From assembly GCA_046582655.1 (NCBI GenBank), contig JAYGDX010000027.1:77902-141901 (forward strand): a stretch of DNA of 64,000 nt, read 5' to 3'. Source of the stretch: Candidatus Poribacteria bacterium. GTDB taxonomy: Bacteria; Poribacteria; WGA-4E; UBA9662. Both the position numbers and the translations under genes were made by a program. Within the stretch, counting starts at the first letter, position 1, and every line of letters starts with the position of its first letter. Shown one piece after another: positions 18,809 to 58,972 of this stretch. The notes under the pieces are model-generated. The model did not search any database. It saw nothing but the letters and a program-made list of their open reading frames with translations, and had not been told where the DNA came from.

Positions 18809-19870
18809 ATGAATGATCCAGTGCAGAGCATCACCAGCCAAGTTGAGGTTATATACGAAAAAACACTGTCTGAGATAGAGCGTGAAGAAACCGATCTCAG
18901 GGAGCAGATCAATCGCCTTGAGAAAAAACGCAATATTCTCGGGAAAAAGCGTGATCATGTTCATCAACTTCGTAGCCTAGTTGAAAACTTAACTCAAGCT
19001 ATTGCTGAAGCTGAAGAGATTTGTGAACAGGAGGAAGAAAGAAAGGCTGACTTAGATGTTCGCATTGAGGAGGTGTCCGTCAATCTGCAACGCTTGCAAG
19101 CGGAGGTAAAGCAGGCCGAAACAGATCATAATCAGGCTAATAAAAGCAAGATTGAAAAATACCGTACTCTCTCCAAGATTGTTGAAAGATTTGGTGATAT
19201 TAAAGGCCGGCTTCCTGATTCTGTTTTAGCAGGGTTGGAAGATGCAGCATGTGACGACACAGAGAGCTTTGAAACCACGTTACCGCAACGTCAGAAACCA
19301 CAGAAGCCGGTGCAGGGCAACATTGAGTCACTTGGCATTACTGATCTAGACCTTGATGAGGCATTGGATGTATATGAAGAGGATGTGATTGGTGACGATG
19401 ATACAATCCTTGAAAATGATACAAGCACTCGCAATTTGCAACCGGGGTTGGAAGATAGTATTATGGGATATGATGAGGATTTGGAAGATGATCCAGAGTT
19501 CGATGAGTTTGAGGCAGAGTTAGCTGGAAGTGAAAGCGAAGACTTGTCGCTTGACGATGATGAATATAATTTTGTGGATGATGAGGAAAGGGAAAACTTT
19601 ATTGATCTCATGCGAGAAGACGATTCTACTCCGTCCCTTCAGGATATTCAGGAAAAACCCAAGCGTGTTGCTTCTAGTGAAGAGATGAGGCTTCGTGAGG
19701 CTATTGCCCCAGCCCAACAGGGTGATGATTCGGAACCAGAAACAGAGAGAACCGAGGTTCTTTCAATGAACCCGAATGGTGGAGAAGATGGAGAAGTGGG
19801 TGAAGATGAGCTGTCAGAAGAAACTTCAGAAAAGACTTTAGAAGAAACGGAAAATAGCAAATCCGAATAA
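18809..19870 (+). CDS. Hypothetical protein: N-terminal coiled coil, highly acidic disordered C-terminus
   Basis: Heptad-rich first ~130 aa, then a D/E-rich low-complexity tail; AGGAG RBS. Confidence 0.8.
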   Translation: MNDPVQSITSQVEVIYEKTLSEIEREETDLREQINRLEKKRNILGKKRDHVHQLRSLVENLTQAIAEAEEICEQEEERKADLDVRIEEVSVNLQRLQAEVKQAETDHNQANKSKIEKYRTLSKIVERFGDIKGRLPDSVLAGLEDAACDDTESFETTLPQRQKPQKPVQGNIESLGITDLDLDEALDVYEEDVIGDDDTILENDTSTRNLQPGLEDSIMGYDEDLEDDPEFDEFEAELAGSESEDLSLDDDEYNFVDDEERENFIDLMREDDSTPSLQDIQEKPKRVASSEEMRLREAIAPAQQGDDSEPETERTEVLSMNPNGGEDGEVGEDELSEETSEKTLEETENSKSE

Positions 19871-19907
19871 ATAGTTATACATAATCAAAGGAGGATTTAC
19901 CTAATAG

Positions 19908-20177
19908 ATGGCACATAGATCTTCAGCTTTCAAGCACATTCGTGCAGATAAACGAAAAAGAGATGTAAGTTTCAGACGAAAATCTGCTATTAGAACTGCC
20001 GTCAAAAAAACCAGAGTAGCAATTGAAGCAGGAAATGTTGAAGAAGCAGAATCCCTTTATCGTAGCGCAGCAGGCCTGCTCGATAGGGCAGCGAGTAAAG
20101 GTGTGATCAAAAAGGGAACTGCCAATAGGAGGAAATCTCACCTAGCAAAAAATCTTCACCTAGTAGCAAATCGCTAG
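19908..20177 (+). CDS. rpsT: 30S ribosomal protein S20
   Basis: MAHRSSAFKHIR..KSAIRTAVKK..LDRAASKGVIKKGTANRRKSHL. Confidence 0.95.
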   Translation: MAHRSSAFKHIRADKRKRDVSFRRKSAIRTAVKKTRVAIEAGNVEEAESLYRSAAGLLDRAASKGVIKKGTANRRKSHLAKNLHLVANR

Positions 20178-20219
20178 TTAAAATAAAATTTCTACTAGCT
20201 TGTGAAGCAACCTTGTTAT

Positions 20220-21536
20220 TTAAGCTTTCAATATTCTTCCCCGAAAGACTTCCCCAACAGGCGGTTCTAAGGTGATTGACAGAATTTGATTAATCGCTGA
20301 ATCCGGGACATCGGCGGCGACCCGCAGATAATTTCCGCTGAACCCAGTTAGCAGATTGTCTTTATCTTCCCTACGATTTTCAACTAATACATCCATCGTT
20401 TTACCAATCATCCGTTTCCGAAATGCCACGCTGAGTTTATTGCCGAGATCAATCATCCATCTGCTGCGTTCAGCGGAGACTTGGGGCTGAACCTGATTTG
20501 GATAGTCTGCGGCCGGTGTATTCCGGCGTGGTGAATACCGAAACACATGCAGTTGGCTGAAACTCATTTCTTCTACAAAAGATGAGGAATCTTCAAAATC
20601 CTGATCTGTCTCTCCTGGGAATCCAACCATAATATCTGTTGTGATTCCAACGTCTGGAAACAGAGATTTCAGTTTTTCAACAAGTCCAGCATATTCTTCA
20701 GTTGTGTATCGACGACGCATTCGCATCAAAGTTTGATCCGATCCTGCCTGTAAGGGAAGGTGAAAATGTGGTTGGCATTTTGGCAATTCTGCCATGCAGA
20801 CAGCCAAGTTCTGCGGGAAATTCATCGGTTCAATTGAACTAAACCGGATTCGTTCGATGCCGTCAATTGAATGAACCTGTTCAAGAACGTCTGTCAGTGA
20901 ATGTTTTTTCCCAATATCAAACCCATAAGATGCTAAGTGAACACCAGTAATAACAATTTCCTTACAATTAGTGGCAGCAATTCTCCCAACTTCTTCCACA
21001 ATATCCTTCAGCGGTCGACTTGTCATTCGACCACGAACGTACGGAATAATACAATACGTGCAAAATGCGCTGCACCCATCCTGTATTTTCACAATAGCAC
21101 GTGTCCGGTTACCAGAACTGCTTATGCCCATACTAAAGTTGGCGTGTTCTCGTACTGCATCGTGGATGACTGGTTCAATTTGTAATAATTCTTGATTTGT
21201 GACTGTATCTAAATAACGTTGGAAGTCTGCTTTTTCACGGTTGCCAAACACTAATGATACGCCTGGAATCGTTTCTATGGATTGACGGTCGCTCTCCGCA
21301 TAACATCCAGTAACAATTATCTTTGCTTTTGGGTTTTTACGGATGATTCGCCGGATTACTTGACGTGCTTTCTGATCGGCAGAATTTGTTACCGTACAGG
21401 TATTAACGACGCAAATGTCTGCATCCTTGTCTAGGTCAACAATTTCATAACCATTACGTACCATCGTATCATAGATTGTGTTTGAGTCGTATTGGTTGAC
21501 TTTACAACCAAACGTGAGAATAGATGCTGTCGGCAT
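20220..21536 (-). CDS. mtaB: tRNA t6A37 methylthiotransferase MtaB
   Basis: TFGCKVNQYDS, NTCTVT, KIQDGCSAFCTYCIIP, C-terminal TRAM; follows rsmE. Confidence 0.93.
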   Translation of the reverse strand: MPTASILTFGCKVNQYDSNTIYDTMVRNGYEIVDLDKDADICVVNTCTVTNSADQKARQVIRRIIRKNPKAKIIVTGCYAESDRQSIETIPGVSLVFGNREKADFQRYLDTVTNQELLQIEPVIHDAVREHANFSMGISSSGNRTRAIVKIQDGCSAFCTYCIIPYVRGRMTSRPLKDIVEEVGRIAATNCKEIVITGVHLASYGFDIGKKHSLTDVLEQVHSIDGIERIRFSSIEPMNFPQNLAVCMAELPKCQPHFHLPLQAGSDQTLMRMRRRYTTEEYAGLVEKLKSLFPDVGITTDIMVGFPGETDQDFEDSSSFVEEMSFSQLHVFRYSPRRNTPAADYPNQVQPQVSAERSRWMIDLGNKLSVAFRKRMIGKTMDVLVENRREDKDNLLTGFSGNYLRVAADVPDSAINQILSITLEPPVGEVFRGRILKA

Positions 21537-21537
21537 T

Positions 21538-22281
21538 TTAGTTGCCTTCTCCTGTTCTGAGTTCGTAGACAACTAAAGCTGCTGCCACGATTGCTGCTGT
21601 TTCCGTACGAAGAATATTAGTACCTAGAGATACTGGAACGCAGTTTTCAGCCAGCGCAGCCTCATTTTCCTGATTGGTGAACCCTCCCTCTGGTCCAACC
21701 AAGACAGCTACTGAATCCAATGAACCGAAACCGCGCAGGACAGATTGTATTGACCTTACTTTCTCATTTTCGTAAAGTATGATTGCTTCATCAAAGCCTC
21801 CGACCGATAGTAAGCACTCTGTGAAACTCTGGATTTGAAGTATTTTAGGAAATCTTAATCTGCGACACTGCTTGGTGGCTTCATTTGCGATTCGTTGCCA
21901 GCGAGTATTCTTCTGTATATGGGTTGAAGGTTTCAAGTTGATGATAGATCTATCTGTGACCATCGGAACAATCTGGTCAACGCCAATTTCTGCTGTCTTT
22001 TGCATAACAAGACCCATTTTGCTAGGTTTGATTAGTGCTTGAAAGAGAGTGACGCTTGGCGAACTTGGAGGATTAAACCCTTGATTGATAATCTCAGCAG
22101 AGATTTTGTTTTCATCAACATATTGAAGTGTGGCAATGTAATAATTGCCATTATCATCAAGAAACCGTACCTGGTCTCCTTGCTGCATCCGTAAAACTGT
22201 GGTGATGTGTTTTTGTTCCGAAGCACTACATCGAATTTTATTGCCATCAATTTGATCTGACGAAATTATGAAATTACGCAC
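21538..22281 (-). CDS. rsmE: 16S rRNA m3U1498 methyltransferase
   Basis: HITTVLR, QKTAEIGV, EATKQC, VGPEGGF, LGTNILRTETA. Confidence 0.95.
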   Translation of the reverse strand: MRNFIISSDQIDGNKIRCSASEQKHITTVLRMQQGDQVRFLDDNGNYYIATLQYVDENKISAEIINQGFNPPSSPSVTLFQALIKPSKMGLVMQKTAEIGVDQIVPMVTDRSIINLKPSTHIQKNTRWQRIANEATKQCRRLRFPKILQIQSFTECLLSVGGFDEAIILYENEKVRSIQSVLRGFGSLDSVAVLVGPEGGFTNQENEAALAENCVPVSLGTNILRTETAAIVAAALVVYELRTGEGN

Positions 22282-22292
22282 TCTATCTGTCC

Positions 22293-22946
22293 TTAATGAC
22301 GAAGTTGATTCATGGCGTCAGCATAGTTACTTTGCTTGAAGACCGCTGTGCCAGCAACCAATATCGTCGCGCCCCGTTCAATGACGAGCGGGGCCGTTTT
22401 CTCATTAATACCACCATCCACCTCCAAATCAATAGGCTTGCCAATTTCCTTAATTTTTTGATCAACATAGCTGATTTTGTCGAGGGTGTCCGGTATGAAC
22501 TTCTGACCGCCAAAACCGGGTTCAACGCTCATTAGGAGAACTAGATCTAAGTCTGGAAGATATGGATCAATCACTGAAATTGGGGTTTGAGGGCGAGTAG
22601 CCAAACCCACTTGTACATTGAATGACTTTATTTTTTCAATCACAACATCAATCGGGGCAGTCACAATCTCAGTGTGAATGGTAATTAGGTCTGCTCCTGC
22701 GTTAACAAACGATTCGATATAGTCCTGAGGGTGTGTCATCATCAGATGCACATCAAAAGGAAGTTCAGTGTGTCGACGGATTGACTTCACGAGTTCTGCT
22801 CCCATAGTCAAATTCGGCACAAAATGCCCATCCATTATGTCAAAATGGATCAGGTCAGCACCTGATTCCTCCACTTTCTGTACATCCTCTCCTAGTTGGC
22901 TGAAATCTGCTGCAAGTATGGAGGGGGCAATCTTTACTTTCTTCAT
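22293..22946 (-). CDS. rpe: Ribulose-phosphate 3-epimerase
   Basis: APSILAADF, HFDIMDGHFVPN, DVHLM, MSVEPGFGGQ, VDGG. Confidence 0.97.
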   Translation of the reverse strand: MKKVKIAPSILAADFSQLGEDVQKVEESGADLIHFDIMDGHFVPNLTMGAELVKSIRRHTELPFDVHLMMTHPQDYIESFVNAGADLITIHTEIVTAPIDVVIEKIKSFNVQVGLATRPQTPISVIDPYLPDLDLVLLMSVEPGFGGQKFIPDTLDKISYVDQKIKEIGKPIDLEVDGGINEKTAPLVIERGATILVAGTAVFKQSNYADAMNQLRH

Positions 22947-23941
22947 TGAATCTCTTGATGTTTGACAAGCTGACCATCTTCGTATATTGAGATACGGGCG
23001 TTACCAGAAATTTTATATGGTTTACGGATTTTCATGCTGGATTCGTAATAAGTATCAACAACTTTCCTTTTGCCAAGCCCATCTTCGATATAGATTTTCA
23101 GGTGCTTGGGTTGGTTATCAACGATGATAATATCATATCGAATCACATAAAAATGTCCTCTTTTATTTTGGCTTCTATGTGAGCCACTGACTTCAAGATT
23201 AATCTGTTGCCCAACGTGGATCAACGTTCCCATAGCTGGTTGATGATTGACAATTTGTCCATGCGGAATTTCAGGATGAAGAACATAATCTACTGACTGA
23301 ATTTTGAATCCATGAGATTTGAGAATTGAGCGCACGTCATTCACTAGCATTCCCTGTAGATCTGGCATTTCAAATGCCTGAGGCCGAACACCTAGACTCA
23401 AAAGTAGGCTGACAGCTCCCGACCTTTGGAGTGCTGTGTCTGCAGGTGGGGTCTGGGCGATGACTGTGTTTTCCTTTGGATGTTGGTTTGAATAAACGGT
23501 GGCAACATACCCACGTCGGAATTGAGATTCTTGAAGAATTTTTTCGGCGGCTTGAATGTCCTTACCAGTCATGTTTGGTACACTATTCATCTCACTTCCA
23601 GTGCTTAGCACGATTCGAATCGGTTTTGACCGTTTTACTCTTGTTTTTGACAGTGGGTTTTGAGCCATAACAATGCCTTTAGCATAGACGGCTTTTTGGG
23701 TGTTTGGATTGACTGGGCTTGGTTTTTCCTCAATTTGGTCGTCCAGTGTTAAACCTATCCCTATGACCGTAGAGGCAGCATTTTGATATGTCTCACCAAT
23801 GAGTGAAGGGATGGTAACATCCTCAGTCTGGATCCATTCTGGGATTAGCCAAAAAACAACAAAGAAACCAACACAGTTGATGGTGACAAAGAAAGAAAAA
23901 TAAATTTTGAAAATCGAATTGAGTATATTATAAATCATCAC
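22943..23941 (-). CDS. Membrane-anchored protein with three PASTA domains
   Basis: Single TM segment, then repeats IPSLIG, VPNMTG, MPDLQG with V.AQ.P motifs; lies between fmt and rpe. Confidence 0.85.
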   Translation of the reverse strand: MMIYNILNSIFKIYFSFFVTINCVGFFVVFWLIPEWIQTEDVTIPSLIGETYQNAASTVIGIGLTLDDQIEEKPSPVNPNTQKAVYAKGIVMAQNPLSKTRVKRSKPIRIVLSTGSEMNSVPNMTGKDIQAAEKILQESQFRRGYVATVYSNQHPKENTVIAQTPPADTALQRSGAVSLLLSLGVRPQAFEMPDLQGMLVNDVRSILKSHGFKIQSVDYVLHPEIPHGQIVNHQPAMGTLIHVGQQINLEVSGSHRSQNKRGHFYVIRYDIIIVDNQPKHLKIYIEDGLGKRKVVDTYYESSMKIRKPYKISGNARISIYEDGQLVKHQEIQ

Positions 23942-24896
23942 TTTTTTGAGTTGAGGAAATAAATCGATTTCCTGTTTTTATACGATATCCATTGACAAAG
24001 TCATGAGCAGACATTTCTTTCTTGGTTGCTGGCTGCACGCGATTCAGGATCAACTTACCCTGAGCAGTATGCACCGCTATTTGTTTATCCTTACTGATTT
24101 CAACCGTTCCTGGCGGGAAAGTTGCGTCACTGTTGAGGGACATGAGGGAACATGAAAGGATCTTAATATGCAAATTATCCTGCAACAAGTATGTGTGGGC
24201 TTGTGGCCAGATTGCAGTTCCTCGTACAAGGTTTCGAATCTCAACCGCAGATTTATTCCAGTTGATGTTGCCAAGTTCTTTAGTCAGTTGTGGAGCATAC
24301 GTCGTCTGCGAATCATCCTGCGGTTGATTCACAGGTAGTTGATCTATTGACTTTCGTAGGGCACGGATCAACAGTTTCGGTGCTAGATTTCCCAGTTGTT
24401 GATACAATACCATTGCATCGGTTTCCGAATCAATTGTGGTGCGCTCCTGTAAGACAATGTCGCCAGTATCCTCTCCTTCATCAAGCAACATAATTGTAAC
24501 CCCTGTTTCTGTTTCTCCGTTTATCAGCGCCCATTGAATTGGCGCCGCACCCCGGTACTTGGGTAGGAGCGACGGGTGGACATTGAGGCAACCGGATGGA
24601 GGAATATCAAGTATGGATCTTGGTAGAATTTGCCCAAAGGCGACGACAACAATTACATCTGGTTTAAGCCGTTTTAGCTGGCTAACTGTGGATTTTGCTC
24701 GTACTTTCTCGGGTTGGAAAATGTTCAGTTTATTCCTTTCAGCCGCCAGCTTGACAGGGGGCGCCTTTAGTTTCTTTCCTCTGCCGCTCGGTCGATCTGG
24801 TTGTGTTATCACTCCGACAATATCGAATTTGTCTCTGATTAATTTTTCAAGACTTGGAACAGCAAAATCACTGGTCCCCATGAACAAAACACGCAT
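23928..24896 (-). CDS. fmt: Methionyl-tRNA formyltransferase
   Basis: MRVLFMGTSDFA, TQPDRPSGRG, NVHPSLLPKYRGAAPI, DTGD. Confidence 0.96.
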   Translation of the reverse strand: MRVLFMGTSDFAVPSLEKLIRDKFDIVGVITQPDRPSGRGKKLKAPPVKLAAERNKLNIFQPEKVRAKSTVSQLKRLKPDVIVVVAFGQILPRSILDIPPSGCLNVHPSLLPKYRGAAPIQWALINGETETGVTIMLLDEGEDTGDIVLQERTTIDSETDAMVLYQQLGNLAPKLLIRALRKSIDQLPVNQPQDDSQTTYAPQLTKELGNINWNKSAVEIRNLVRGTAIWPQAHTYLLQDNLHIKILSCSLMSLNSDATFPPGTVEISKDKQIAVHTAQGKLILNRVQPATKKEMSAHDFVNGYRIKTGNRFISSTQKSDDL

Positions 24897-24969
24897 GAAA
24901 GTACCTTTGGGAATTCCAAATGAATGCTGGTTTTCTGACAATTAGCCAGCAGGTTGTAATTAAATTCTA

Positions 24970-25458
24970 TTAGAATTGAATACCGACAAGCCTTATGGTT
25001 GTGTTGTTAGGTAGGCTGACGTTCGGTTCTATTGGCCTACGCTTGGGAAGACTTTCTTGTGGAATCAATGGTTCGGACCGATCTTTACCGCGCGTTATGT
25101 ACCAATCTCGTATTCCAATGAAGAGTGAAAAGCAAGCCGTGCATATGCCGATGACACGAAAATTCTGATCGGAGAGTTTGGGAGAAAACTTATTTTGGTG
25201 TATCATTTCAATTCCGCGAACCATGAAAAAGCTGTGAACTGCGGTGAATGGAAGAGAACTAAGCGTAATAATCTCGAAACGACGCAACGCACTTTCATCA
25301 TATTCGTTTAGTTCTTCTGACTCTTCTTGACGAGTCTCTGTTTCTTCATCAATTTCCGGGATTTCTGTTATGGACTGTGAAAAAATACTGTTGTTACAGG
25401 TAATGACTAGTGTCAAGAAGATCAGGAATTCGAATTTAATTTTTGATCGTTTCTTCAA
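24970..25458 (-). CDS. Hypothetical membrane or exported protein
   Basis: In-operon ORF overlapping the lspA end; ESALRRFEIITLSSLPF motif and hydrophobic segments. Confidence 0.6.
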   Translation of the reverse strand: MKKRSKIKFEFLIFLTLVITCNNSIFSQSITEIPEIDEETETRQEESEELNEYDESALRRFEIITLSSLPFTAVHSFFMVRGIEMIHQNKFSPKLSDQNFRVIGICTACFSLFIGIRDWYITRGKDRSEPLIPQESLPKRRPIEPNVSLPNNTTIRLVGIQF

Positions 25459-25936
25459 AATTCAATTTTCGGTTTCGTATTGTGTAGATGATAAGCATAC
25501 CCGCTCCAATACAAATTGCCGTATCTGCGGTGTTAAAAGTTGGCCACTTGTACTTAGGTAATATTCCAAATTGAAGGAAATCGATTACCTCACCATACTG
25601 GATGCGATCGATCAAATTGCCGATTGCGCCACCTAAAATAAACCCAAGTCCAACCCGCATCCAGAGACTATGCCGGAATTGAAAATAATAATACGCAATG
25701 AAAAGCATTGCTAAAATTGTGGCAGCGATTAGCAAGGTACGTTGTCCCTGCATTAGACTAAAAGCCGCGCCACTGTTGCGATCATGGCGAAGATTAAAGA
25801 ATCCTTCAATAACAACAATTTGGTCGTAATAATCAATACGTTGTTTGATGATTGTTTTGGTGAGTTGATCAAGACAGATAATGAGAATTGAGATTCCAAA
25901 CAACGGAATAATAGGACGAAAGTAATTCTTTTCCAT
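25436..25936 (-). CDS. lspA: Lipoprotein signal peptidase II
   Basis: DQLTK, NSGAAFS, GGAIGNLIDR, VIDF, WPTFNTAD. Confidence 0.96.
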   Translation of the reverse strand: MEKNYFRPIIPLFGISILIICLDQLTKTIIKQRIDYYDQIVVIEGFFNLRHDRNSGAAFSLMQGQRTLLIAATILAMLFIAYYYFQFRHSLWMRVGLGFILGGAIGNLIDRIQYGEVIDFLQFGILPKYKWPTFNTADTAICIGAGMLIIYTIRNRKLNFEETIKN

Positions 25937-25950
25937 TTGTTAATTACTGT

Positions 25951-28314
25951 CTAAGCAGTTGCATCTTGATCTTTGCTAATTTTCTCTATGGGGATTTGAG
26001 ACACCCAATCAAGTAGAAAGATGCTTGATTGGGTGTCTCCAGTTGGATTAATTTGGTCAGATAGCACTGCATAAGTGTATTCTGCGAGAAACGGCATAAT
26101 TGGTGCGATACGCTGAAGATATACAATTAGCATGTGATAGAGGACATTTCGTGTTGATTCGTTAACAGGTAGTGATTTTTTTGTAGTAATTGAATCTTCT
26201 AACTGAGGCAGATAATTTTTCCTCAGGAACGTCTGAGAAAATTCCTTTAGCAAATACCAGCTCCGCCCGAAATCCTGACGTTTGTATGCGCAATCAATTT
26301 CTGATAGCATAGTATTAGTATGCGCTAAGGCTTGGCTATCCAATTCGTTGAGATTACTGATTTTGTGTGAATCCTGCTCGCAATTAAAACCTTTGATCTC
26401 GAATGTAATTTGTTGCAAAGTTTCACTAATGTTTTGATAATCTTTCTGATATTCTTGAAATTGCTGCTCAAGTGAATTCCCATTCAGGTATTCATCTATG
26501 GCGAAAATCCGTGCCACGTCAGCAGGATAACGATCAACTATTTCTCTATCGGCACCAAGTTGGGCGAAATTTTTGTTTATCTTAGTCATCTCCACTTTTC
26601 GATACGGGATTGTTTTATGTAAGGCAATTGAAACTAGATTTAGTTGCGCAAACCATTTTGGAAACTCTTCCGAACTATAGAAATAGCAGTTAATTGATTT
26701 TGGATAGTTCTTTCCCACGTCAGAATTGTTAATCTCGTTAATAATAACTGCGAATTTTTCACTTAAGAAGGTCGTTTCTTTATAGAACTTCCTTGAGCCA
26801 CAATTAGAACATGTTGTTTCGATTGGCAATAGGTCTTCCGCTTCAAGTTTGAACCAGATATCGTTACCACGACGCGAAATAAGCTCACGAATAGCCTTGA
26901 GCGTTTTTGCGTCTGAAAGTTGCGCATTACATTTCTCGCATTGGAAGATGGGGAAAGGGATACTTCCACTCCGATGACTCGAAACGAGTGGTGGGGGTGT
27001 CTGTTGTATCATTTCCTTAATCCAAAGTACGTCTTCTGCTGGATGATCCTCCCAATTTTGATCACAATTTACCAGTTTGTTGGTAACAGATCTATCAATG
27101 TCCAGACTCCATTTATGCACCAGTCGATAGATAACACTACACTTTGACATGCTGCAATACGGCAATGGAACTGTACTTTTATTTGTTTGGACCAGATAAT
27201 TGCGTTTTTCCAATTCAGATTCAATGATTTTCTCTGACTCCGCAATCTTGAGGCCATAAAACATATGTGTTGTTTCATTGAGGTAGCCAGTATTGTCAAT
27301 AACACTTGATACTGGTAGCGCCTTGGCTTGTGCTATGATATAATGATCTGGATTGTGTCCAGGAGCAATATGTGAAATTCCATCCCGATTATTGGAATCA
27401 GACAGTTGGACAATTGGTATATCAGAGGTTAAAATCGGATGCTTACAAATACAGTCTGCTACCTGCTCTGAGCCGATAGATCTAATCAACTGCAATTGGC
27501 CTCCGAGAGCACCTGAGAGATTTGTTTCAACATCTGATTCAGCAATAATAACCGTATCTTGGTTCAATTTAGCGATGATATAGCGTTGATCTGTCCTAAC
27601 ACCAATAGCGACTGTGGCCACCACTTGCCAGATTTCTTTAATGGAAACCACAATGAACATCTCGCTGCCAAGTTCTTCAAATCCGATCTTTATCGGAAAC
27701 TTAACGTAGCCTGATAACACCTCAGTCGGCCGAATCTCAAAATCACTTTCGTCGACTACAGTGTTGCGGTTGTAACACCAAACTTCCAGTTTTTGATCTG
27801 TCTCGATTTGTTTTTGTGCCCGGAGTTTGTTGAAAGAGGATAAGATCTTCGATTCATTTCGGTTACATAAATTCTTTGTGGTATTCTTCCAATTGGCAAA
27901 CATACCGAGTGCTTCAAGTTCTCGTTTTCTAGCTTTGATCTCTGTTTGGAAGTACTGCCTATACTGATTCCGAAATGCTAAAATATCGTGCGGTGATTCT
28001 TTTGGTTCTGTGTTAAGGATCCGTTGTTGGATGCCAGGTGCGCAATAGTCCCAGTGTGGTTTGTAATTGACATGTATGTTTTGTTGTAAATTGGTTTTCA
28101 GGAATATATCTTGATGAATTCTAGCGGCTAAGTTATCAAAATCAAGATTGTCAACAGCGATCGGCATTTCGCGAAGAGTAAAATGTTCTGATTCTGTTCT
28201 GTCTATAAGCTTCTCATAAACGTTTAGCTGGCACCATTTTTCTAAAATCTGCTCCTCTTGGTGTTGATCTAAAATATGACTCGGCATTGTTGTACCATTC
28301 ATGATTATTGTCAA
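25951..28314 (-). CDS. Isoleucyl-tRNA synthetase-derived protein lacking catalytic motifs (pseudo-IleRS; start may be 28302 or 28287)
   Basis: Collinear with type-1 IleRS (EEQILEKW, YVKFP, HIAPGH, PIFQCEKC..IWF..EAEDLLP..CSNC..FYKET, PADVAR, IAPIMPFLAE), but HIGH, GWDxHG, SRQR, DQxRGWF and KMSKS are absent and the C-terminal zinc finger is missing; canonical yggT-ileS-lspA position. Confidence 0.85.
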   Translation of the reverse strand: MTIIMNGTTMPSHILDQHQEEQILEKWCQLNVYEKLIDRTESEHFTLREMPIAVDNLDFDNLAARIHQDIFLKTNLQQNIHVNYKPHWDYCAPGIQQRILNTEPKESPHDILAFRNQYRQYFQTEIKARKRELEALGMFANWKNTTKNLCNRNESKILSSFNKLRAQKQIETDQKLEVWCYNRNTVVDESDFEIRPTEVLSGYVKFPIKIGFEELGSEMFIVVSIKEIWQVVATVAIGVRTDQRYIIAKLNQDTVIIAESDVETNLSGALGGQLQLIRSIGSEQVADCICKHPILTSDIPIVQLSDSNNRDGISHIAPGHNPDHYIIAQAKALPVSSVIDNTGYLNETTHMFYGLKIAESEKIIESELEKRNYLVQTNKSTVPLPYCSMSKCSVIYRLVHKWSLDIDRSVTNKLVNCDQNWEDHPAEDVLWIKEMIQQTPPPLVSSHRSGSIPFPIFQCEKCNAQLSDAKTLKAIRELISRRGNDIWFKLEAEDLLPIETTCSNCGSRKFYKETTFLSEKFAVIINEINNSDVGKNYPKSINCYFYSSEEFPKWFAQLNLVSIALHKTIPYRKVEMTKINKNFAQLGADREIVDRYPADVARIFAIDEYLNGNSLEQQFQEYQKDYQNISETLQQITFEIKGFNCEQDSHKISNLNELDSQALAHTNTMLSEIDCAYKRQDFGRSWYLLKEFSQTFLRKNYLPQLEDSITTKKSLPVNESTRNVLYHMLIVYLQRIAPIMPFLAEYTYAVLSDQINPTGDTQSSIFLLDWVSQIPIEKISKDQDATA

Positions 28315-28571
28315 CCAAGCATGCGGGAGATAAATTGTAGAAGAAATATAAGGATAATTGGGGAAATATCAAATCCGATGTTCTTCGTCATTGGGCTTAT
28401 TACACGACGAATTGGATCAAGTACGGGATCAACCAGTGGACTCGTTGTCCTGTAAACTCTGCGAACCGTCATGTTATGTGAAGTGTGTACAAACCAAGAT
28501 AAGAGTACATTTACAACAACAATTATTATATAGATCCGTATTAACCCGCTCAAAATTAAAGTGATATCCAT
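28311..28571 (-). CDS. yggT: YggT/YlmG family membrane protein
   Basis: IYIIIVVVNVLLSWF..DPVLDPIRRVI..GFDISPII. Confidence 0.9.
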   Translation of the reverse strand: MDITLILSGLIRIYIIIVVVNVLLSWFVHTSHNMTVRRVYRTTSPLVDPVLDPIRRVISPMTKNIGFDISPIILIFLLQFISRMLG

Positions 28572-28590
28572 AAAAAAATCCTTGTGATTT

Positions 28591-29430
28591 TTATGCCTGC
28601 GCAAGTTCTTGGGCACGTTCAGTTGCAGCGATTACTGCCGCATTGACAATCGAACGAAACCTGCCCTGTTCCAGTTCGAACAACCCTGCGGCTGTTGTCC
28701 CTGCTGGTGTGGTTACCCGACTTTTCCAAATGGCTGGATGTTCTCCACTCTGGTCGATTATCTTGCTTGCCCCAAGAACTGTCTGGACGGCAAGTTGGTG
28801 GGCATCTTCATGAGATAACCCGACATGCACACCTGCGTCTATGAGTGCTTCTATGAATAGAAAAACGAATGCCGGACCACTGCCGCTTAAACCAGTAACA
28901 GCATCTAATTGCTTTTCCTCAGTGATGAAGGAACTGCCAACCGCGTTGAAGATCGCCTGTGATTTGGTAAGATGACTTTCATCGGCATAACTGCCGGGTG
29001 ATATGGCTGTCACTCCCGAACCTACTGTTACAGCAATGTTGGGCATGACACGAATGACGGGGACAGACTCGGCAAGGTAAGACTCCAGTTTCACAGTTGG
29101 GATACCTGCTGCTATTGAGATTAAAAGTTGATTTGGCTTAACAAGTTCTCTTACCTGTGTGAGGATCCCTGCTACGTTGTTTGGTTTAGCTGAGTAAAGA
29201 ATAACATCAACTTTTTCGACCAGGTGGTTGACGGTCTCAACAGCATGGACACCAAGTTCTTGGCACAACTCATCGACTTTTGTTTGATCTACATCTGTGA
29301 CGAAGATCTGTTCATTGCTCAGCAATTTTTTCGCCACGCCACGGATTATAGCTGCTCCCATATTACCAATGCCAATAGCGCCAAAATGACCGATAGCGGA
29401 TGAAGGCGTTTTAAATTGCTTGGGCATCAA
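28591..29430 (-). CDS. proC: Pyrroline-5-carboxylate reductase
   Basis: GIGNMG, ISIAAG, RVMPN, TGLSGSGPAF, VTTPAGTT. Confidence 0.96.
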   Translation of the reverse strand: MMPKQFKTPSSAIGHFGAIGIGNMGAAIIRGVAKKLLSNEQIFVTDVDQTKVDELCQELGVHAVETVNHLVEKVDVILYSAKPNNVAGILTQVRELVKPNQLLISIAAGIPTVKLESYLAESVPVIRVMPNIAVTVGSGVTAISPGSYADESHLTKSQAIFNAVGSSFITEEKQLDAVTGLSGSGPAFVFLFIEALIDAGVHVGLSHEDAHQLAVQTVLGASKIIDQSGEHPAIWKSRVTTPAGTTAAGLFELEQGRFRSIVNAAVIAATERAQELAQA

Positions 29431-30134
29431 TTTCGTTCTCCAAAAATTGATCTGCCAATTCGAATATAGTTTGCTCCTTCCTCAATTGCAACTTCAAAAT
29501 CGTTTGTCATGCCCATTGACAAACAACCCATATCAACATTAGTCAGATTCTGTACAGCAATATCATCCCGTAATTCTCTAAGCATAGTAAAGGATGGACG
29601 AACAGACTCGGGATCCGGTTCAAATTTGCCAATTGTCATTAATCCTTTAATTTGAATATTTGAATAAGTTGAAGCTTGCGCAACGAAATCCTTCACTTGA
29701 TCTGGCATAATACCGAATCTACTTGTGTTGCCAGAGGTGTTGACTTGAATCAAAATAGGCTTTTGTATTCCCAGATCAGCGGACCTTTGATCTATAGTTC
29801 CAACTAATCTTAGGCTGTCAACAGATTGGATAATATCGAAGAATTGGATAGCTTGTTTTATTTTGTTTGTTTGCAGGTGACCAACCATGTGCCATGTTGC
29901 TGGGCGATCAATAGCGTCATATTTAACTTTGGCTTCCTGCACACGGTTTTCACCTATGTGGGTAATACCCGCATCGAGCACTTCATGGATCGCCTCGATC
30001 GGTTTCGTTTTCGAGACAGCCACTAGTTGGACCGAATCGGGATCACGACCAATGCGATTTGCTGTTTTAGCGATTTGTTCTTGAAGACGCGAGATGTTAT
30101 CGTAGATCGAAGCCAAATTTCGTCCTTGCAACAT
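29427..30134 (-). CDS. yggS: PLP homeostasis protein YggS
   Basis: LVAVSKTKP, GENRVQE, WHMVGHLQTNK, GLMT, LSMGMTND, RIGRSIFG. Confidence 0.96.
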   Translation of the reverse strand: MLQGRNLASIYDNISRLQEQIAKTANRIGRDPDSVQLVAVSKTKPIEAIHEVLDAGITHIGENRVQEAKVKYDAIDRPATWHMVGHLQTNKIKQAIQFFDIIQSVDSLRLVGTIDQRSADLGIQKPILIQVNTSGNTSRFGIMPDQVKDFVAQASTYSNIQIKGLMTIGKFEPDPESVRPSFTMLRELRDDIAVQNLTNVDMGCLSMGMTNDFEVAIEEGANYIRIGRSIFGERN

Positions 30135-30294
30135 AAACCCGTAACTTCCAATACTAGCATATTTTTTTCACCAGTTGCAAGAGCAACTTAAGTTTGAGTG
30201 AGTTGTTAATTGACTTCCCAACCACCAATTATACTGTGCTATACTTCTGATTATATTGTTGAAAAATTCTGAAGGGACACGATTTGGGGAAGAA

Positions 30295-31041
30295 ATGGTG
30301 CATAGGAAATGGGCGAAATATCACCAACTCCGACCGGATCAGGTTTCTGAGTTGGTTGACCAAACTCCGGTTGTCTTCTGGCCACTTGGTCTAATCGAAC
30401 ATCATGGTTGGCACTTACCAATTGGATATGATGGTCTGAAGGCGGAGAGAATATGTGTGCGCATCGCGCAGAAAACTGGCGGTATCATTTTGCCGACAAT
30501 GTGGTGGGGGGCCCTTGGTGGACACGGCGATTTTTTATGGACACACTATCAACCACCTGAATCCACAGCGCAGATTCTATCAACCACCATCTATCAACTA
30601 ATCCAATTTGGGTTTCAAGTGATTGTGTTATTAGCCGGGCATTATCCATGGCAACAGTTTCTTAATCAGGAATTGCCAGAGATCCAATCTAACAATCCTG
30701 AAATCCTTATTTTAGCAGGAACGGAGATGTCAATTTGTGGAGAAGATATCAAACTGCCCGGAGACCATGCCGGACGAGCTGAAACTTCGTATGGTCTAGC
30801 CCTATTTCCGGAGTTAATCGATCTGCAAGAGTTGCGCTCTGGTCGCGACTTATCAGTTTGGCCTAATGGTGAAATGCCTCCTAAAGAGAAATGGCATTCG
30901 GCCGTCTGTTTTGATCACAGTGATCCGCTCTTTGCTCAAATGGGACAGCCAGCGGATGAGGCAAGTGTTGATGAGGGAAAAAGTGCGATTTCGATGCTTG
31001 TGGATAATCTGGCTGAGAAAATTAACACTTTTTTAGATTGA
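30295..31041 (+). CDS. Creatininase family amidohydrolase
   Basis: PLGLIEHHGWHLPIGYD, AGH, DHAGRAETS. Confidence 0.88.
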   Translation: MVHRKWAKYHQLRPDQVSELVDQTPVVFWPLGLIEHHGWHLPIGYDGLKAERICVRIAQKTGGIILPTMWWGALGGHGDFLWTHYQPPESTAQILSTTIYQLIQFGFQVIVLLAGHYPWQQFLNQELPEIQSNNPEILILAGTEMSICGEDIKLPGDHAGRAETSYGLALFPELIDLQELRSGRDLSVWPNGEMPPKEKWHSAVCFDHSDPLFAQMGQPADEASVDEGKSAISMLVDNLAEKINTFLD

Positions 31042-31061
31042 TCTTCGGCTTGAGGTGATAA

Positions 31062-31357
31062 ATGGCAATGATAGCTGGTCTTTGTATTATTCCCATGGGT
31101 TCTTGGCATGTCGGTATCAAAAGAAATTGCTGTGTGCGAAAAAAATCTACTTGATGCGGGTTTAAAGATTAAGTTACATGCTTATGGAACTAATATTGAA
31201 TGAAATGGGAGATAGTCTTTGATGTAATAAAGTCGTGCCATCAGATACCCCAAACCGAAGTGCTGCGTACTAGCACAACGCTCAAGTTTGGTACAAGAAC
31301 AGCCGGAATTAGACGATGGAGGATAAGGTTGTCAGCATCAAAAAGAAACTGTGCTAG
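31062..31357 (+). pseudogene. MTH1187/YqgV thiamine-binding protein pseudogene
   Basis: Frameshifted pieces MAMIAGLCIIPMG / SVSKEIAVCEKNLLDAGLKIKLHAYGTNIE / WEIVFDVIKSCH..TSTTLKFGTRT / TMEDKVVSI. Confidence 0.75.
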
Positions 31358-31400
31358 GCATCTCTTTATGCTCCTCGCTGAATTTTGAAACCGAAAACAA

Positions 31401-31430
31401 TTGAAAATCATGTGGTTGTTAAAGTATAAT
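31401..31430 (+). promoter_or_regulatory. Sigma70-type promoter of the tatA operon
   Basis: TTGAAA-18 bp-TATAAT, then AGGAGG RBS. Confidence 0.55.
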
Positions 31431-31463
31431 CCTGGCAGCATGTAATTTCTAGGAGGTATAGTG

Positions 31464-31667
31464 ATGGGTGCTTTAGGTGGCTGGGAAATTATACTTATTG
31501 TTATAGCGGTTCTCGTTATCTTTGGGCCGAAGCGTTTACCAGAGATGGGAAGTGCGCTTGGAAAAGCGATTCGGGACTTTAAAAATGCTGGCAAGGAAAT
31601 CCAAAACGATATAGCTCAAACCGTGAACGAAAATGGCTCGGATATAAATTCGAAAAAGGATGCCTGA
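31464..31667 (+). CDS. tatA: Twin-arginine translocase TatA
   Basis: GGWEIILI..FGPKRLPEMGSALGKAIRDFK. Confidence 0.95.
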   Translation: MGALGGWEIILIVIAVLVIFGPKRLPEMGSALGKAIRDFKNAGKEIQNDIAQTVNENGSDINSKKDA

Positions 31668-32505
31668 AGTCGATATCCAAGAAGATCTAGCGGGCGAAAT
31701 GACCTTTTGGGAACATCTCGAAGAATTACGCCGTCGTATTATTGTTTCACTAATTTCAGTTGGTATTTTTATGATTCTGAGTTTGTCCTTCAGCAAACCG
31801 ATCGAAAGGATTATGAAACTGCCACTAGATTTATCGACTAACAGGCTCCTGGCGTTTTTGATCGATCGAATATTTGGTCAAGACGCAACGTTTGTGGGAT
31901 TTCTATCAATATCGCTGAGGGCAAGTGCGATGGGTGTTGATGCAAAGCTGATAAAAGATGGTCCGCTTGAAGGCATCATGGCTTATCTCAAGATTAGTAT
32001 TACTTTCGGAATCCTATGTGCCTCACCGATCTTAATCTACCAAGTTTGGGCTTTTGTTCTTCCGGCATTTACCACTAAGGAAAAGCAGTTTGCTCTTCCT
32101 CTTTTCCTGATTATTATCCTTTTTTTTATTATTGGAGCTTTGTTTGCATACTTTATTGTTGCACCAGTTGTGCTTGGGTTTTCTTCCAAGCTTTTTGAAG
32201 GCACCCAAAACTTGTGGGGAATTCAAAGGTACTTCAATTTCCTGGTACAGTTACTCTTGGGATTCGGCATCGCATTTGAGCTTCCTATAGTTATGTCTTT
32301 TTTGTCTTTTATTAATGTAATCAATGCAAATGGTTTTCGTCAAAAGCGGAGTGTTGCCTTGGTTGGAATTATGGTTCTCTCAGCATTCTTGACACCAGCG
32401 GATGTACTCTCAATGTTGTTGATGGCTATTCCTCTCATTTTACTGTATGAATTGGGAATCTTCTTCTCATTTCTTGTTGAGCAGGAGCCTGAAGTTTATG
32501 CCTGA
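31660..32505 (+). CDS. tatC: Twin-arginine translocase TatC
   Basis: MTFWEHLEELRRR, YQVWAFVLP, FGIAFELP, AFLTPAD, LYE. Confidence 0.96.
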   Translation: MPEVDIQEDLAGEMTFWEHLEELRRRIIVSLISVGIFMILSLSFSKPIERIMKLPLDLSTNRLLAFLIDRIFGQDATFVGFLSISLRASAMGVDAKLIKDGPLEGIMAYLKISITFGILCASPILIYQVWAFVLPAFTTKEKQFALPLFLIIILFFIIGALFAYFIVAPVVLGFSSKLFEGTQNLWGIQRYFNFLVQLLLGFGIAFELPIVMSFLSFINVINANGFRQKRSVALVGIMVLSAFLTPADVLSMLLMAIPLILLYELGIFFSFLVEQEPEVYA

Positions 32506-33250
32506 TCTGAATCTAACCTTGGAACTTGCTTTTTTGTATGATTTGCAACAGATTGACGCTGAGATTTTAACTCGACACAAAAGGCTCAAGTTGATTCCGA
32601 ACGATATCCAGAAGTTGAGAGAGGATTTTCGGGTACACGAACAGAAATTGAATGCGTTAAAAGATCAACTCTCTCAGGCAGAAAAAGAGCAGCGATTTCG
32701 GTCAGCAGAAATAGAAACATTGGATGAACAAAGGAAGAAGTACCAGGCTCAGTTGACTGCCGTCAAAACCAACAGTGAGATGAAGGCGCTCTATAGTCAG
32801 CTGGAATTCCTGGATCAGCAAGAGGAGAAAATTGAGGATCAGATCTTAGAATTAATGTTTATTGTTGATGATCTTGGGGGTGAGGTCAAAAAGGAACATG
32901 AAATTCTGTCAACTAAAAATGTAGATCGCAAAGCTGAAGAAGCTGGACTTCAGACAATTGCTCAAGATATTAAGGCAGATATTTCCGAAATTCAAGAGAA
33001 ACGCCAAAACTTGATCCAGAAAGTTAATCCGGATTTATTCGAGCAATACCAGAGCAGGGTGGCTACCCAACATACTAACTTGGTCACTCCCGTTGTGGGA
33101 AATAGCTGTGGTTATTGCAAATTGACAATTCCTCCGCAGATGCTTAATGAAGTGAAACAGGCACGAAAAAAAATTGCTTGTCCATCTTGTAAGCTAATTC
33201 TGTTTGAGTTGCTGAATCTCGAGCAGACCGATGATGCTACTGGCGAATAG
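32498..33250 (+). CDS. Coiled-coil C4 zinc-ribbon protein (DUF164/CT398-like)
   Basis: LQQID, long coiled coil, CGYC..IPPQ..CPSCKLIL. Confidence 0.88.
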   Translation: MPDLNLTLELAFLYDLQQIDAEILTRHKRLKLIPNDIQKLREDFRVHEQKLNALKDQLSQAEKEQRFRSAEIETLDEQRKKYQAQLTAVKTNSEMKALYSQLEFLDQQEEKIEDQILELMFIVDDLGGEVKKEHEILSTKNVDRKAEEAGLQTIAQDIKADISEIQEKRQNLIQKVNPDLFEQYQSRVATQHTNLVTPVVGNSCGYCKLTIPPQMLNEVKQARKKIACPSCKLILFELLNLEQTDDATGE

Positions 33251-53646: not shown

Positions 53647-54468
53647 GTGATGCAGAAGCGTCCTTTCAATATCCGAGGATTACGGGAAAGTGATTGGGAA
53701 ATTTTTCAGGATCGTATTGCGGACTTGGAAAAGGGAACCAGCTATCCATTAGGCGGCGATCGGTTTGAGATTGATCACGGTAAAAATTACTTTGCATTCT
53801 TTACTCGTCTAGGCAAATTACACTACTACGTTGTACTCGATGGAGAAAAAGTCATAGCAGTAGCCGCTGCAATCCTGCGTCAAATACAGCCCATTGGGAG
53901 TGAAAAGCCCAAAAAGGTATGGTACCTTTGTGATTTGAAAGTGCGGCCAGAATCGCGCGGGCAGTACATCCCATTCAAGATGTTTGTCTGTGCCGTTCCA
54001 AAACATTATCTTCTCTGCCCACGTGGGTATGCCATATCGATGGATACGGGTATCGGACGTAAAAATCTTGTCGCGCTTATGCTGACACGATTCCCATTGG
54101 TACCAATTTCGATTGCAACGAAGCTAGGTATCGTCTCTTTAGATTGCGAAAGAATGCGGTCCGTTGAACCAGTCCTACGAGAGTATCTCGGATCTGTGTC
54201 TTATCTTTCGCTGGAAGGGAAAAAGGACATCATCTTGGAAAGTACGCAATCCCCTATGCCACTGCTACATGTTCAGTTCGGTCATTGTGCCCAGCAGGGA
54301 TATCCCGAACCGCTTGATGGTTATACACATATGTTATGTGCACCCATCGATGACCCTTTGCTTAAAGCATTGAGTTATCAAGCAATTTATCCATCTGCCA
54401 CCGCAACAGTGATTCATCACCGTATGGAGGATTGGGACTGGCGATTTATACTCACCAGTGATATCTGA
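53647..54468 (+). CDS. GNAT-fold acyltransferase
   Basis: YYVVLDGEKVIAV..ILR, VWYLCDLKVRPESRG (acyl-CoA-binding motif A). Confidence 0.7.
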   Translation: MMQKRPFNIRGLRESDWEIFQDRIADLEKGTSYPLGGDRFEIDHGKNYFAFFTRLGKLHYYVVLDGEKVIAVAAAILRQIQPIGSEKPKKVWYLCDLKVRPESRGQYIPFKMFVCAVPKHYLLCPRGYAISMDTGIGRKNLVALMLTRFPLVPISIATKLGIVSLDCERMRSVEPVLREYLGSVSYLSLEGKKDIILESTQSPMPLLHVQFGHCAQQGYPEPLDGYTHMLCAPIDDPLLKALSYQAIYPSATATVIHHRMEDWDWRFILTSDI

Positions 54469-54498
54469 CTAAGACATAAGGTAGGAGGTTTAGAATTT

Positions 54499-54629
54499 CA
54501 TTGCCTAATTTAGTTGCCAATCAAGTCTGAAATTAAAGCTATGTCCCTCCGAAGAAGTAAGCGAGGCATTGTTTGGGCTCAAGACGAGGGGATTTGGGGC
54601 AAAGGTATTGAGAATAAATTGAGGCAATA
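54499..54629. mobile_element. MITE-like element, about 130 bp
   Basis: Ends CATTGCCTAATTTA and TAAATTGAGGCAATA are near-complementary; related short ends occur at 51609-51644. Confidence 0.4.
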
Positions 54630-54718
54630 CTTATCAGCCACTTAGCGGTTCAACTCAGTTTATGAGCTACCAGAATGTGTCTTACTATATTCATAATCAA
54701 GTCAACTTTTATTTATTC

Positions 54719-56053: not shown

Positions 56054-56256
56054 AAGTATTTGACCAGCTATATTCATCACGTGGCTTAGTAAGGTGAGCA
56101 GCGGCAAGATCGTAGCGAGCCAGTCCGGTTCAGAAATGCCTGGATGCGTCATGTGAAAAGTTACAACGAATGCCAAGACTTAAACCTTCTTGGCTGGATT
56201 AGAGGTTGTTGGCCAACTACTGACAACCTTATTTTTTCATGGATTGGCATCATCGC

Positions 56257-56285
56257 TTGACACTGATTAGCCCAAATGCTAGAAT
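56257..56285 (+). promoter_or_regulatory. Sigma70 extended -10 promoter
   Basis: TTGACA-17 bp-TAGAAT with TG at the extended position. Confidence 0.6.
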
Positions 56286-56385
56286 CGAATTTGTTAGTTA
56301 AATAATATAGCATCTACAAGCCAGGACTGGATCTTGACCCCCATTTTACTCTGATCAACACGGGTGGGAATACTTTCTGGGCTTA

Positions 56386-58948: not shown

Positions 58949-58972
58949 GGACCAAAGAAAGGAGTTTCCCAG

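Follow-up and report, generated by a model that had tools for sequence, protein, structure and literature searches.

Several proteins descended from aminoacyl-tRNA synthetases (aaRSs) do not serve to supply translation with charged tRNA. Two class-Ia copies found beside an active enzyme are LeuRS-I of Sulfolobaceae and LeuRS2 of Halobacteria. They have a disrupted editing domain, their aminoacylation is lost or very low, and their role is probably non-translational (PMC9437257; statements taken from this and the other papers cited here by PMC number refer to excerpts of them). HisZ is likewise derived from an aaRS, does not aminoacylate, and has a non-catalytic job (PMC5388404, PMC9437257). 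For isoleucyl-tRNA synthetase (IleRS), the excerpted surveys of aaRS paralogues give only the type-2 enzyme, IleRS2, and SbzA (PMC5388404, PMC9437257), and no natural type-1 enzyme (IleRS1) without the canonical HXGH signature was found in the analysis excerpted from PMC10485003. The gene studied here, pseudo-ileS, and its product, pseudo-IleRS, come from a 64,000-nucleotide stretch of DNA from a Candidatus Poribacteria bacterium (GenBank assembly GCA_046582655.1, contig JAYGDX010000027.1, forward-strand positions 77,902 to 141,901; this whole stretch is called the window below). Pseudo-ileS represents a pseudo-synthetase family that is new, spans the phylum and derives from IleRS1, but it is not a new kind of system. 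The old copy of the synthetase probably now has a non-enzymatic job.

The nearest functional analogues of pseudo-IleRS would be LeuRS-I, LeuRS2 and HisZ, and it differs from each. Leucyl-adenylate formation and tRNA(Leu) binding persist in LeuRS-I (PMC9437257), whereas pseudo-IleRS has neither the adenylate motifs nor the tRNA determinants. In contrast to both LeuRS paralogues, pseudo-IleRS is bacterial, occurs throughout a phylum, and is the original copy of its gene rather than a duplicate. HisZ differs in being a class II derivative whose partner, HisG, and pathway are known and whose gene is usually linked to his genes. SbzA, which acts in SB-203208 biosynthesis, shares with pseudo-IleRS an IleRS origin and a job other than tRNA charging for translation. 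However, it resembles type 2, its HIGH and KMSKS motifs are present in slightly modified form, it aminoacylates weakly and it is encoded in a biosynthetic cluster (PMC6331615), and pseudo-IleRS has none of these features. No published description of the Poribacteria protein or of a pseudo-IleRS was found in the full-text literature, where the supplementary IleRS trees of PMC10485003 and PMC13752280 could hold such sequences uncommented. The excerpt of PMC13752280, a 2026 paper on the evolution of the IleRS C-terminus, makes no mention of Poribacteria or of anything inactive or truncated, and 'pseudo' appears there only within unrelated words such as pseudomonic acid.

Descent from type-1 IleRS

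The pseudo-ileS open reading frame (ORF) spans 25951-28314 (-) and consists of 787 uninterrupted codons, from a TTG start at 28314 to a stop at 25951-25953. There is an alternative ATG at codon 5 (28302), which is the start of the identical 783-residue database protein P0002. The base composition of the gene predicts one stop in ~15 codons, and 787 stop-free codons would arise by chance with a probability of ~6e-24. The longest open run in 2000 shuffles of the gene is 167 codons.

Only aaRS models match the protein in Pfam and NCBIfam, and no family of aminoacyl-tRNA-dependent transferases is among the matches. The Pfam hits are tRNA-synt_1 (1.1e-21) and Anticodon_1 (3.9e-11). The ileS equivalog model TIGR00392 aligns to nearly the whole protein with an E value of 2.9e-69, at a score of 234.2 bits that lies below the family threshold of 621.4. 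The closest sequences in the PDB are IleRS1 from P. megaterium (8c9f/8c9e, 3.4e-53) and S. aureus (1ffy, 1.5e-51), whereas type-2 enzymes in the same database reach only ~1e-10. An AlphaFold2 (AF2) model built from the family alignment has a mean predicted local distance difference test score (pLDDT) of 88.9 and a predicted template modelling score (pTM) of 0.88, and its top Foldseek matches are IleRS1 structures (8c9f, E 1.9e-44, TMq 0.68). Sequence, Foldseek matches and an IleRS2-rooted tree place the protein nearer to IleRS1 than to IleRS2, ValRS or LeuRS.

Pseudo-ileS descends from a type-1 IleRS. The Rossmann fold, the connective peptide 1 (CP1) domain, the zinc knuckles and the helical domain are common to pseudo-IleRS and to IleRS1 of P. 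megaterium (8c9e) and S. aureus (1ffy/1qu2), as are the position of the gene beside lspA and the four cysteines of zinc module 2. What separates it from IleRS1 is the loss of HXGH, KMSKS, the motifs of the isoleucine and ATP pocket, the editing motifs, the C-terminal zinc domain and the KIRNTxRF motif. The initial annotation, which was made from the sequence of the window, had described an intact 787-codon ORF collinear with type-1 IleRS between yggT and lspA, and the frame, the profile and structure matches, and the synteny agree with that description.

Erased and retained motifs

Motif positions were read from a residue-by-residue alignment to PDB IleRS1 and from a MAFFT alignment with six canonical IleRS1 sequences. 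In both alignments LHDGPPYANGxxHxGH is replaced by LREMPIAVDNLDFDN in the protein from the window, PGWDxHGLP by PHWDYCAPG, the editing motif WTTTPWT by SIKEIWQ, ISRQRxWG by LVSSHRSGS, DVWFDSG by SEKFAVI, and EGSDQxRGWF by YSSEEFPKWF. The HXGH column reads NLDFDN, and the signature is present in no row of the family. In the MAFFT alignment a 9-residue gap takes the place of the KMSKS loop, and HMMER pairs the site with a remnant, KINKN, that is not conserved in the family. No match to the C-terminal zinc domain PF06827 is found at E<=1, and the alignment ends near residue 768 of the 921-residue 8c9f.

The same losses extend through the family. HXGH, GWDxHG, WTTTPWT, DVWFDSG, EGxDQxRGWF and KMSKS occur in none of the inspected rows among its 82 distinct proteins. 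The column of the conserved editing aspartate in GHGxxDY holds serine in 74% of family rows, and the glycine that precedes an invariant proline in canonical enzymes is methionine in 93%. The KIRNTxRFLLSNL motif, which is strongly conserved at the start of the canonical helical domain, is absent from pseudo-IleRS.

Two cysteine-based zinc sites have had different fates. The four cysteines of zinc site 1 (WCPxC...HCxxC) are kept in most clades and are partly lost in the genus of the window (WCYNRN, YCSMSKC). Those of zinc module 2 (C459, C462, C502 and C505) are invariant or nearly so.

In published work HXGH is present in all 158 IleRS1 sequences analysed, and the GXHH swap of two residues within it abolished product formation in two IleRS1 enzymes (PMC10485003). 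From its motifs, pseudo-IleRS is predicted to be unable to form Ile-AMP, to charge tRNA or to edit it.

Each motif replacement listed in the initial annotation lies at the aligned position, and the deletion of the KMSKS loop and the absence of the C-terminal zinc domain that it reported are likewise seen here. Its choice of the best-kept parts stands only for the CP2 zinc module, which has the highest conservation and the lowest ratio of nonsynonymous to synonymous substitution (dN/dS). The other two choices do not hold, since HIAPGH is confined to the genus of the window and the helical bundle is the least constrained region.

A type-2 IleRS in the same genome

The source assembly, a metagenome-assembled genome (7.3 Mb, 421 contigs, 95.9% complete), encodes a second IleRS of 1046 residues on another contig (G000:C359; L001 1480-4620). 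This protein scores 972.7 bits against TIGR00392, above the cut-off of 621.4 bits, and aligns end to end with IleRS2 of P. megaterium (8c8w and others, E 0). It keeps WTTTPWT, the HxAP..DDY editing motif and KMSKS, and its signature is G-V-H-H instead of HXGH. A natural non-canonical G/AXHH signature in IleRS2 is tied to mupirocin hyper-resistance (PMC10485003). Among related genomes, 40 of 41 contain an IleRS above the TIGR00392 cut-off. A second intact IleRS, possibly of type 2, had been expected from the initial annotation to reside elsewhere in the genome, and this is the enzyme that was found. Judged by these sequence features, Ile-tRNA(Ile) is predicted to be made by the type-2 IleRS.

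The presence of this enzyme bears on two candidate roles that were rejected. A trans-editing factor is not indicated because the editing motifs of pseudo-IleRS are lost and IleRS2 keeps its own. Provision of a domain that IleRS2 lacks is not indicated either, because IleRS2 aligns with the P. megaterium enzyme over its whole length.

Canonical IleRS proteins in the order (G009-G040) fall into two size classes. The first, of ~1050-1070 residues, is found in families f1 and f2 and in group g5 and scores ~945-1000 bits. The second, of ~1120-1190 residues, is found in g6, g7 and g8 and scores ~541-562 bits, or 671-699 bits when in-frame neighbouring pieces are included. These classes suggest two IleRS2 lineages or a replacement of one enzyme by another.

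Distribution and phylogeny

A scan of species-representative genomes with the family pattern yields 99 relatives. Among the best 80 of these, 78 are labelled Candidatus or uncultured Poribacteria and 2 'uncultured bacterium'. An ORF of at least 650 residues is present in 98 of 100 loci examined (L009-L108), and the other two are halves of one gene that is split at the start of a circular record. The 98 intact loci encode 82 distinct proteins.

A profile built from 16 members matches 158 of 176 Poribacteria genomes at E<=1e-30, a count that includes weaker matches with E values of 1e-31 to 1e-69 (G042-G048), which were assigned by score only and may be fragments or divergent members. Divided by taxonomic family, matches are found in 112/112 genomes of f2, 25/29 of f4, 5/6 of f1 and 15/17 from seven further families. 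ORFs of 734-931 residues with the same motifs erased are also found at seven extra loci, of which five come from f8, f9 and f10, other families within the class or phylum. All seven have the gene order proC-(yggT)-X-lspA, where X is the pseudo-ileS position.

Two trees rooted on IleRS2, both flagged for the meeting of long branches, place the Poribacteria proteins in a single clade. In the first, all 25 of 25 rows group with a support of 100 in the Shimodaira-Hasegawa-like approximate likelihood ratio test (SH-aLRT), on a stem of 1.77 substitutions per site that parts the family from IleRS1. In the second, which includes the divergent classes, 23 of 23 rows group with the same SH-aLRT support of 100. 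A single loss of catalysis that predates the split of the sampled Poribacteria classes is the most parsimonious account.

Selection and conservation

Values of dN/dS were calculated by the Nei-Gojobori method with our own script. Pseudo-ileS compared to two congeners gives 0.234 (dS 0.48) and 0.190 (dS 0.88), and 14 neighbouring genes from the same genome pairs give 0.073-0.312 and 0.067-0.180, respectively. Across the family the median is 0.168 (range 0.088-0.381) for 413 pairs with 0.05<dS<1.5, drawn from 939 pre-filtered pairs out of 3321. Constraint is uneven within the gene. In the genus of the window, zinc module 2 and the second Rossmann half have the lowest values (0.09-0.14), followed by the N-terminal Rossmann half (0.15-0.18) and CP1 (0.18-0.26).

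Conservation was measured on an alignment of 117 rows, 87 from the family and 30 from canonical IleRS1, which contains 18 invariant and 55 nearly invariant columns. Of the positions with at least 95% conservation in canonical IleRS1, 101 have a different majority residue in the family and 53 are shared. For another 28 positions, conservation of at least 95% is restricted to the family. These cluster on the former HIGH side of the protein (R48, E49, Q68, F71 and L72), at the start of CP1 (P207, G211, E213 and G216) and in zinc module 2 (D468, R476, R482, L490, E493 and L495).

Zinc module 2 has a conservation of 0.75 in the family, the highest value there, versus 0.55 in canonical enzymes. Its median net charge is +2 in the family versus -2 in canonical enzymes, and it carries the motif AiRxxi-rRG...FRKE. 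Many members also have a low-complexity N-terminal tail rich in K, R, S and T, which reaches at least 25 residues in 56 of 87 family rows (for example, L045, L047, L069 and L098). The 64 tails of at least 25 residues have a median length of 35 residues, with 9 K+R versus 2 D+E. A short conserved C-terminal extension, 'D..EW..LK', is seen in many members as well.

Pseudo-ileS is not in decay: purifying selection maintains a folded product of ~790-950 residues, which is therefore a pseudo-synthetase. Descent from an aaRS, the presence in the same genome of an active aaRS with the same specificity, and purifying selection across species are all found. These results also accord with an expectation of the initial annotation, that orthologues between yggT and lspA would be intact and selected: all 98 of the 98 whole-gene loci are open, and the dN/dS values of 0.19-0.23 in the genus and the family median both indicate constraint.

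Possible roles of pseudo-IleRS

On the evidence from sequences and models, it is rather probable that pseudo-IleRS is a displaced ancestral IleRS1 kept as a pseudo-synthetase that binds a ligand or acts as a scaffold without catalysis. The gene would be the ancestral type-1 ileS that Poribacteria inherited vertically, still at its old yggS-proC-yggT-ileS-lspA locus. By the time the sampled classes separated, it would already have lost the synthetic site (HIGH, KMSKS and the motifs of the isoleucine and ATP pocket), the editing site and the C-terminal zinc/anticodon domain. A type-2 IleRS would have taken over the charging of tRNA with isoleucine, and the old gene would have been retained for what its product binds. 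Two surfaces would do the work: the side of the Rossmann fold that once held HIGH and has since been remodelled (REMP...QDIFLK), and zinc module 2, which is conserved and basic (AIRxxxxRRG...FRKE).

A constrained old active-site face and a basic zinc module, together with basic tails in many members, favour a role in binding RNA or another polyanion, or as a scaffold. A ligand that is RNA or a polyanion can be proposed only tentatively, and such a ligand bound in a non-canonical mode appears somewhat more likely than a protein partner. Binding of tRNA(Ile) in the fashion of a synthetase would not be expected, since pseudo-IleRS lacks the anticodon-side determinants and no part of it is more relaxed than the helical domain. 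The role would be accessory, since some lineages live without the gene.

Several observations weigh against a retained non-catalytic function. The first are absences of the gene. Pseudo-ileS is cleanly deleted in g5 and g7, where yggT lies ~190 bp from lspA. In g6 an unrelated 121-residue ORF fills the site and the family profile matches 0 of 4 genomes, and in family f3 it matches 0 of 11. One g3 species (G006; L109 1985-2437 (-)) has only a 150-residue C-terminal helical remnant with YPPDIVR, QRIAPL..AE and SIF..W. At least three independent lineages have lost pseudo-ileS, and one more case is a truncation. The gene is thus dispensable in these lineages.

The properties of the protein supply further points of this kind. 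The dN/dS of pseudo-ileS is at the relaxed end of the range of working neighbours, yet inside it, and constraint is weakest in the helical domain (0.29-0.46 in the genus of the window). Recognition of tRNA by the canonical route looks lost, with the C-terminal domain and KIRNTxRF gone and the helical domain so relaxed. The protein from the window has no basic N-terminal tail, and whole-protein isoelectric points (pI) are not basic (5.6 for this protein and a family median of 6.15, versus 6.40 for canonical enzymes). The case for catalytic inactivity is itself drawn from motifs only.

One genome also complicates the division of labour between the two synthetases. G010, which is 99% complete in 120 contigs, has pseudo-ileS and gives only ValRS-, LeuRS- and pseudo-IleRS-like matches, even with an IleRS2 query. 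The missing canonical IleRS is probably an assembly gap.

The presence of the gene in RNA libraries is, by contrast, a point in favour. Contigs at least 99% identical to pseudo-ileS are found in four metatranscriptome runs from four studies (hydrothermal vent, marine and seawater), but these are assembled contigs, from which strand, transcript ends and level are unreadable, and DNA carry-over is possible. One contig spans lspA to pseudo-ileS (25575-26651) and one spans pseudo-ileS to yggT (28262-28622), which hints that the gene may be transcribed as part of an operon.

Pseudo-IleRS could instead be a regulatory or structural subunit in the fashion of HisZ for HisG, with its conserved surfaces binding a protein. 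Candidates for that protein are IleRS2, translation factors, and products of the same operon that act in the envelope or in cell division. HisZ is an established case of an aaRS paralogue that became a regulatory subunit (PMC5388404, PMC9437257). Pseudo-enzyme status and selection agree with such a role, as do the loss of canonical tRNA determinants and the acidic overall pI. The TTGA overlap that couples translation to yggT, the start of lspA 15 nucleotides on and the phylum-conserved ten-gene operon would also fit. However, the adjacency of ileS and lspA is ancestral and says nothing about function. An lspA-linked function deduced from adjacency was rejected on the same ground, and because the neighbours persist where pseudo-ileS is deleted: yggT, lspA and hyp162 all remain there and none is co-lost (L109-L113). 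These three genes are unchanged in lineages without pseudo-ileS, and a polyanion ligand accords better with the basic zinc module and with the basic tails at the N-terminus. A HisZ-like subunit is therefore regarded as unlikely.

Still less likely is that pseudo-IleRS is a different enzyme, either an aminoacyl-tRNA-dependent transferase that uses Ile-tRNA made by IleRS2 or a synthetase whose catalytic residues have moved elsewhere. Catalysis is possible in class-I-like Rossmann folds that lack HIGH and KMSKS, as in cyclodipeptide synthases, and SbzA is an IleRS homologue that transfers isoleucine from Ile-tRNA (PMC6331615; the former point is likewise taken from excerpted literature). Invariant polar residues that are particular to the family, among them R48, E49, Q68 and D69, occupy the former active site, and P51, W88 and W554, in the region of the old isoleucine pocket, do not vary. 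SbzA, on the other hand, keeps HIGH and KMSKS and belongs to a biosynthetic cluster (PMC6331615), whereas pseudo-ileS resides in a housekeeping operon. All motifs for ATP and the amino acid are replaced, including the glycine before the invariant proline that is now mostly methionine, the anticodon-side determinants for tRNA are lost, and the gene is dispensable in several lineages.

The least probable explanation is a functionless relic in very slow decay, with a frame that is open only because stops would be polar on lspA and fmt: it would account for the independent losses and the truncation, the dN/dS at the upper end of the neighbours, the relaxed helical domain and the degenerate zinc site 1 in the genus of the window, but polarity, which can keep a frame open, would neither hold dN/dS at 0.17 nor preserve 18 invariant and 55 near-invariant columns, 28 family-specific residues and a confident fold, the frame is intact in every complete locus across a phylum-level radiation, and clean deletion is possible yet rare.

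Genomic context of pseudo-ileS

The features of the gene and its immediate neighbours are listed in Table 1. The gene order around pseudo-ileS (X) is kept as yggS-proC-yggT-X-lspA-hyp162-fmt-PASTA-rpe-rsmE. Over 79 loci, in which contig ends limit the detection of missing neighbours, yggT and proC are present in 78 and lspA, hyp162, fmt and yggS in 77.

Table 1. Positions in the window of pseudo-ileS, its domains and former motifs, and the flanking genes
Feature	Coordinates	Strand	Remarks
Pseudo-IleRS1 ORF	25951..28314	-	Pfam, TIGR00392, AF2, Foldseek
Former HIGH region, residues 46-69: TLREMPIAVDNLDFDNLAARIHQD	28108..28179	-	'REMP' and 'QD' are family-wide motifs
Former PGWDxHGLP, residues 86-94: PHWDYCAPG	28033..28059	-	P86 and W88 invariant
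Zinc site 1, first half: WCYNRN (for WCPxC)	27763..27780	-	Degenerate in the genus of the window
CP1 (editing-domain) homologue, residues 196-400	27115..27729	-	SIKEIWQ at 27625-27645
GISHIAPGHNPDHY within the CP1 homologue	27340-27381	-	
Zinc site 1, second half: PYCSMSKCS	27136-27162	-	
Zinc module 2, residues 455-515	26770..26952	-	Motif AIRxLISRRG..WFKL..EDLLP; most conserved and most constrained part
Former DVWFDSG, residues 518-524: SEKFAVI	26743..26763	-	
Former EGxDQxRGWF, residues 546-555: YSSEEFPKWF	26650..26679	-	W554 invariant
Site of lost KMSKS loop, residues 570-586: PYRKVEMTKINKNFAQL	26557..26607	-	9-residue gap versus canonical IleRS1
Helical (anticodon-binding-domain) homologue, residues 596-775	25990..26529	-	Without KIRNTxRF; least constrained domain
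yggT/ylmG-like gene, upstream of pseudo-ileS	28311..28616	-	TGA stop overlaps the TTG start (TTGA)
lspA (signal peptidase II), downstream of pseudo-ileS	25436..25936	-	Starts 15 nucleotides past the pseudo-ileS stop

The hyp162 gene is a 162-residue ORF after lspA (24970-25458 (-)), whose product has a hydrophobic N-terminus, an acidic stretch and more hydrophobic segments. It occupies the same position in 77 of the 79 loci and is also found in lineages without pseudo-ileS.

An Rfam scan of 19000-33000 gives 0 matches at the gathering score, and no T-box or other known leader is therefore recorded in that interval. Pattern scans find 34 promoter-like sites versus 25.7 +/- 4.9 in shuffled sequences and 8 terminator-like sites versus 8.6 +/- 3.1, neither of which is informative about operon structure. 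Elsewhere in the window, positions 54001-64000 have a G+C content of 0.47-0.52 versus ~0.39-0.47 in the remainder.

Degenerate IleRS1 proteins outside Poribacteria

The family profile has 10522 matches at E<=0.001 among the representative genomes, of which the best 150 were inspected for motifs. Among these 150, 100 fail at least one strict motif pattern and 31 fail all four. Besides divergent Poribacteria, they include a separate set of proteins that keep LHDGPP and GWDxHGLP and lack HxGH and KMSKS (P0079, P0090, P0095, P0096, P0111, P0112, P0133, P0135, P0143, P0148, P0156, P0157, P0173, P0181 and P0203). The metagenome-assembled genomes behind this set carry labels that include Armatimonadota, Myxococcales/Deltaproteobacteria and Bacillota. 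In the tree, twelve rows of the set group as a clade that is distinct from the Poribacteria family (SH-aLRT 99, with a long-branch warning). Displaced IleRS1 genes may have been recycled more than once.

Implications

Pseudo-synthetases are few, and each one that is understood (HisZ, the HisRS-like domain of GCN2, and LeuRS-I) has brought new biology. Poribacteria add a whole phylum with an IleRS1 that has no HXGH, encoded by the original gene at its original locus and kept through the radiation that followed takeover by a type-2 enzyme. The family is a natural experiment on the fate of a displaced essential enzyme. It is also well sampled, with 87 aligned rows, ~160 genomes and independent losses, so that its function is testable. 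The labels 'isoleucine--tRNA ligase' and 'class I tRNA ligase' that are assigned automatically to such proteins overstate what pseudo-ileS does.

A more specific and rather speculative proposal is that the dead IleRS1 serves as a bacterial sensor or adaptor of a new kind. Its old active-site face and basic zinc module would bind RNA or another polyanion and so couple translation status to the co-transcribed envelope and cell-division genes. The ligand may be uncharged or immature tRNA held in a non-canonical mode, or rRNA. GCN2 contains a catalytically dead HisRS-like domain, and if the sensor or adaptor proposal is true, pseudo-IleRS would be a bacterial counterpart of that domain. The degenerate IleRS1 clades in other phyla would then represent recurrent recycling of displaced synthetases into such a role.

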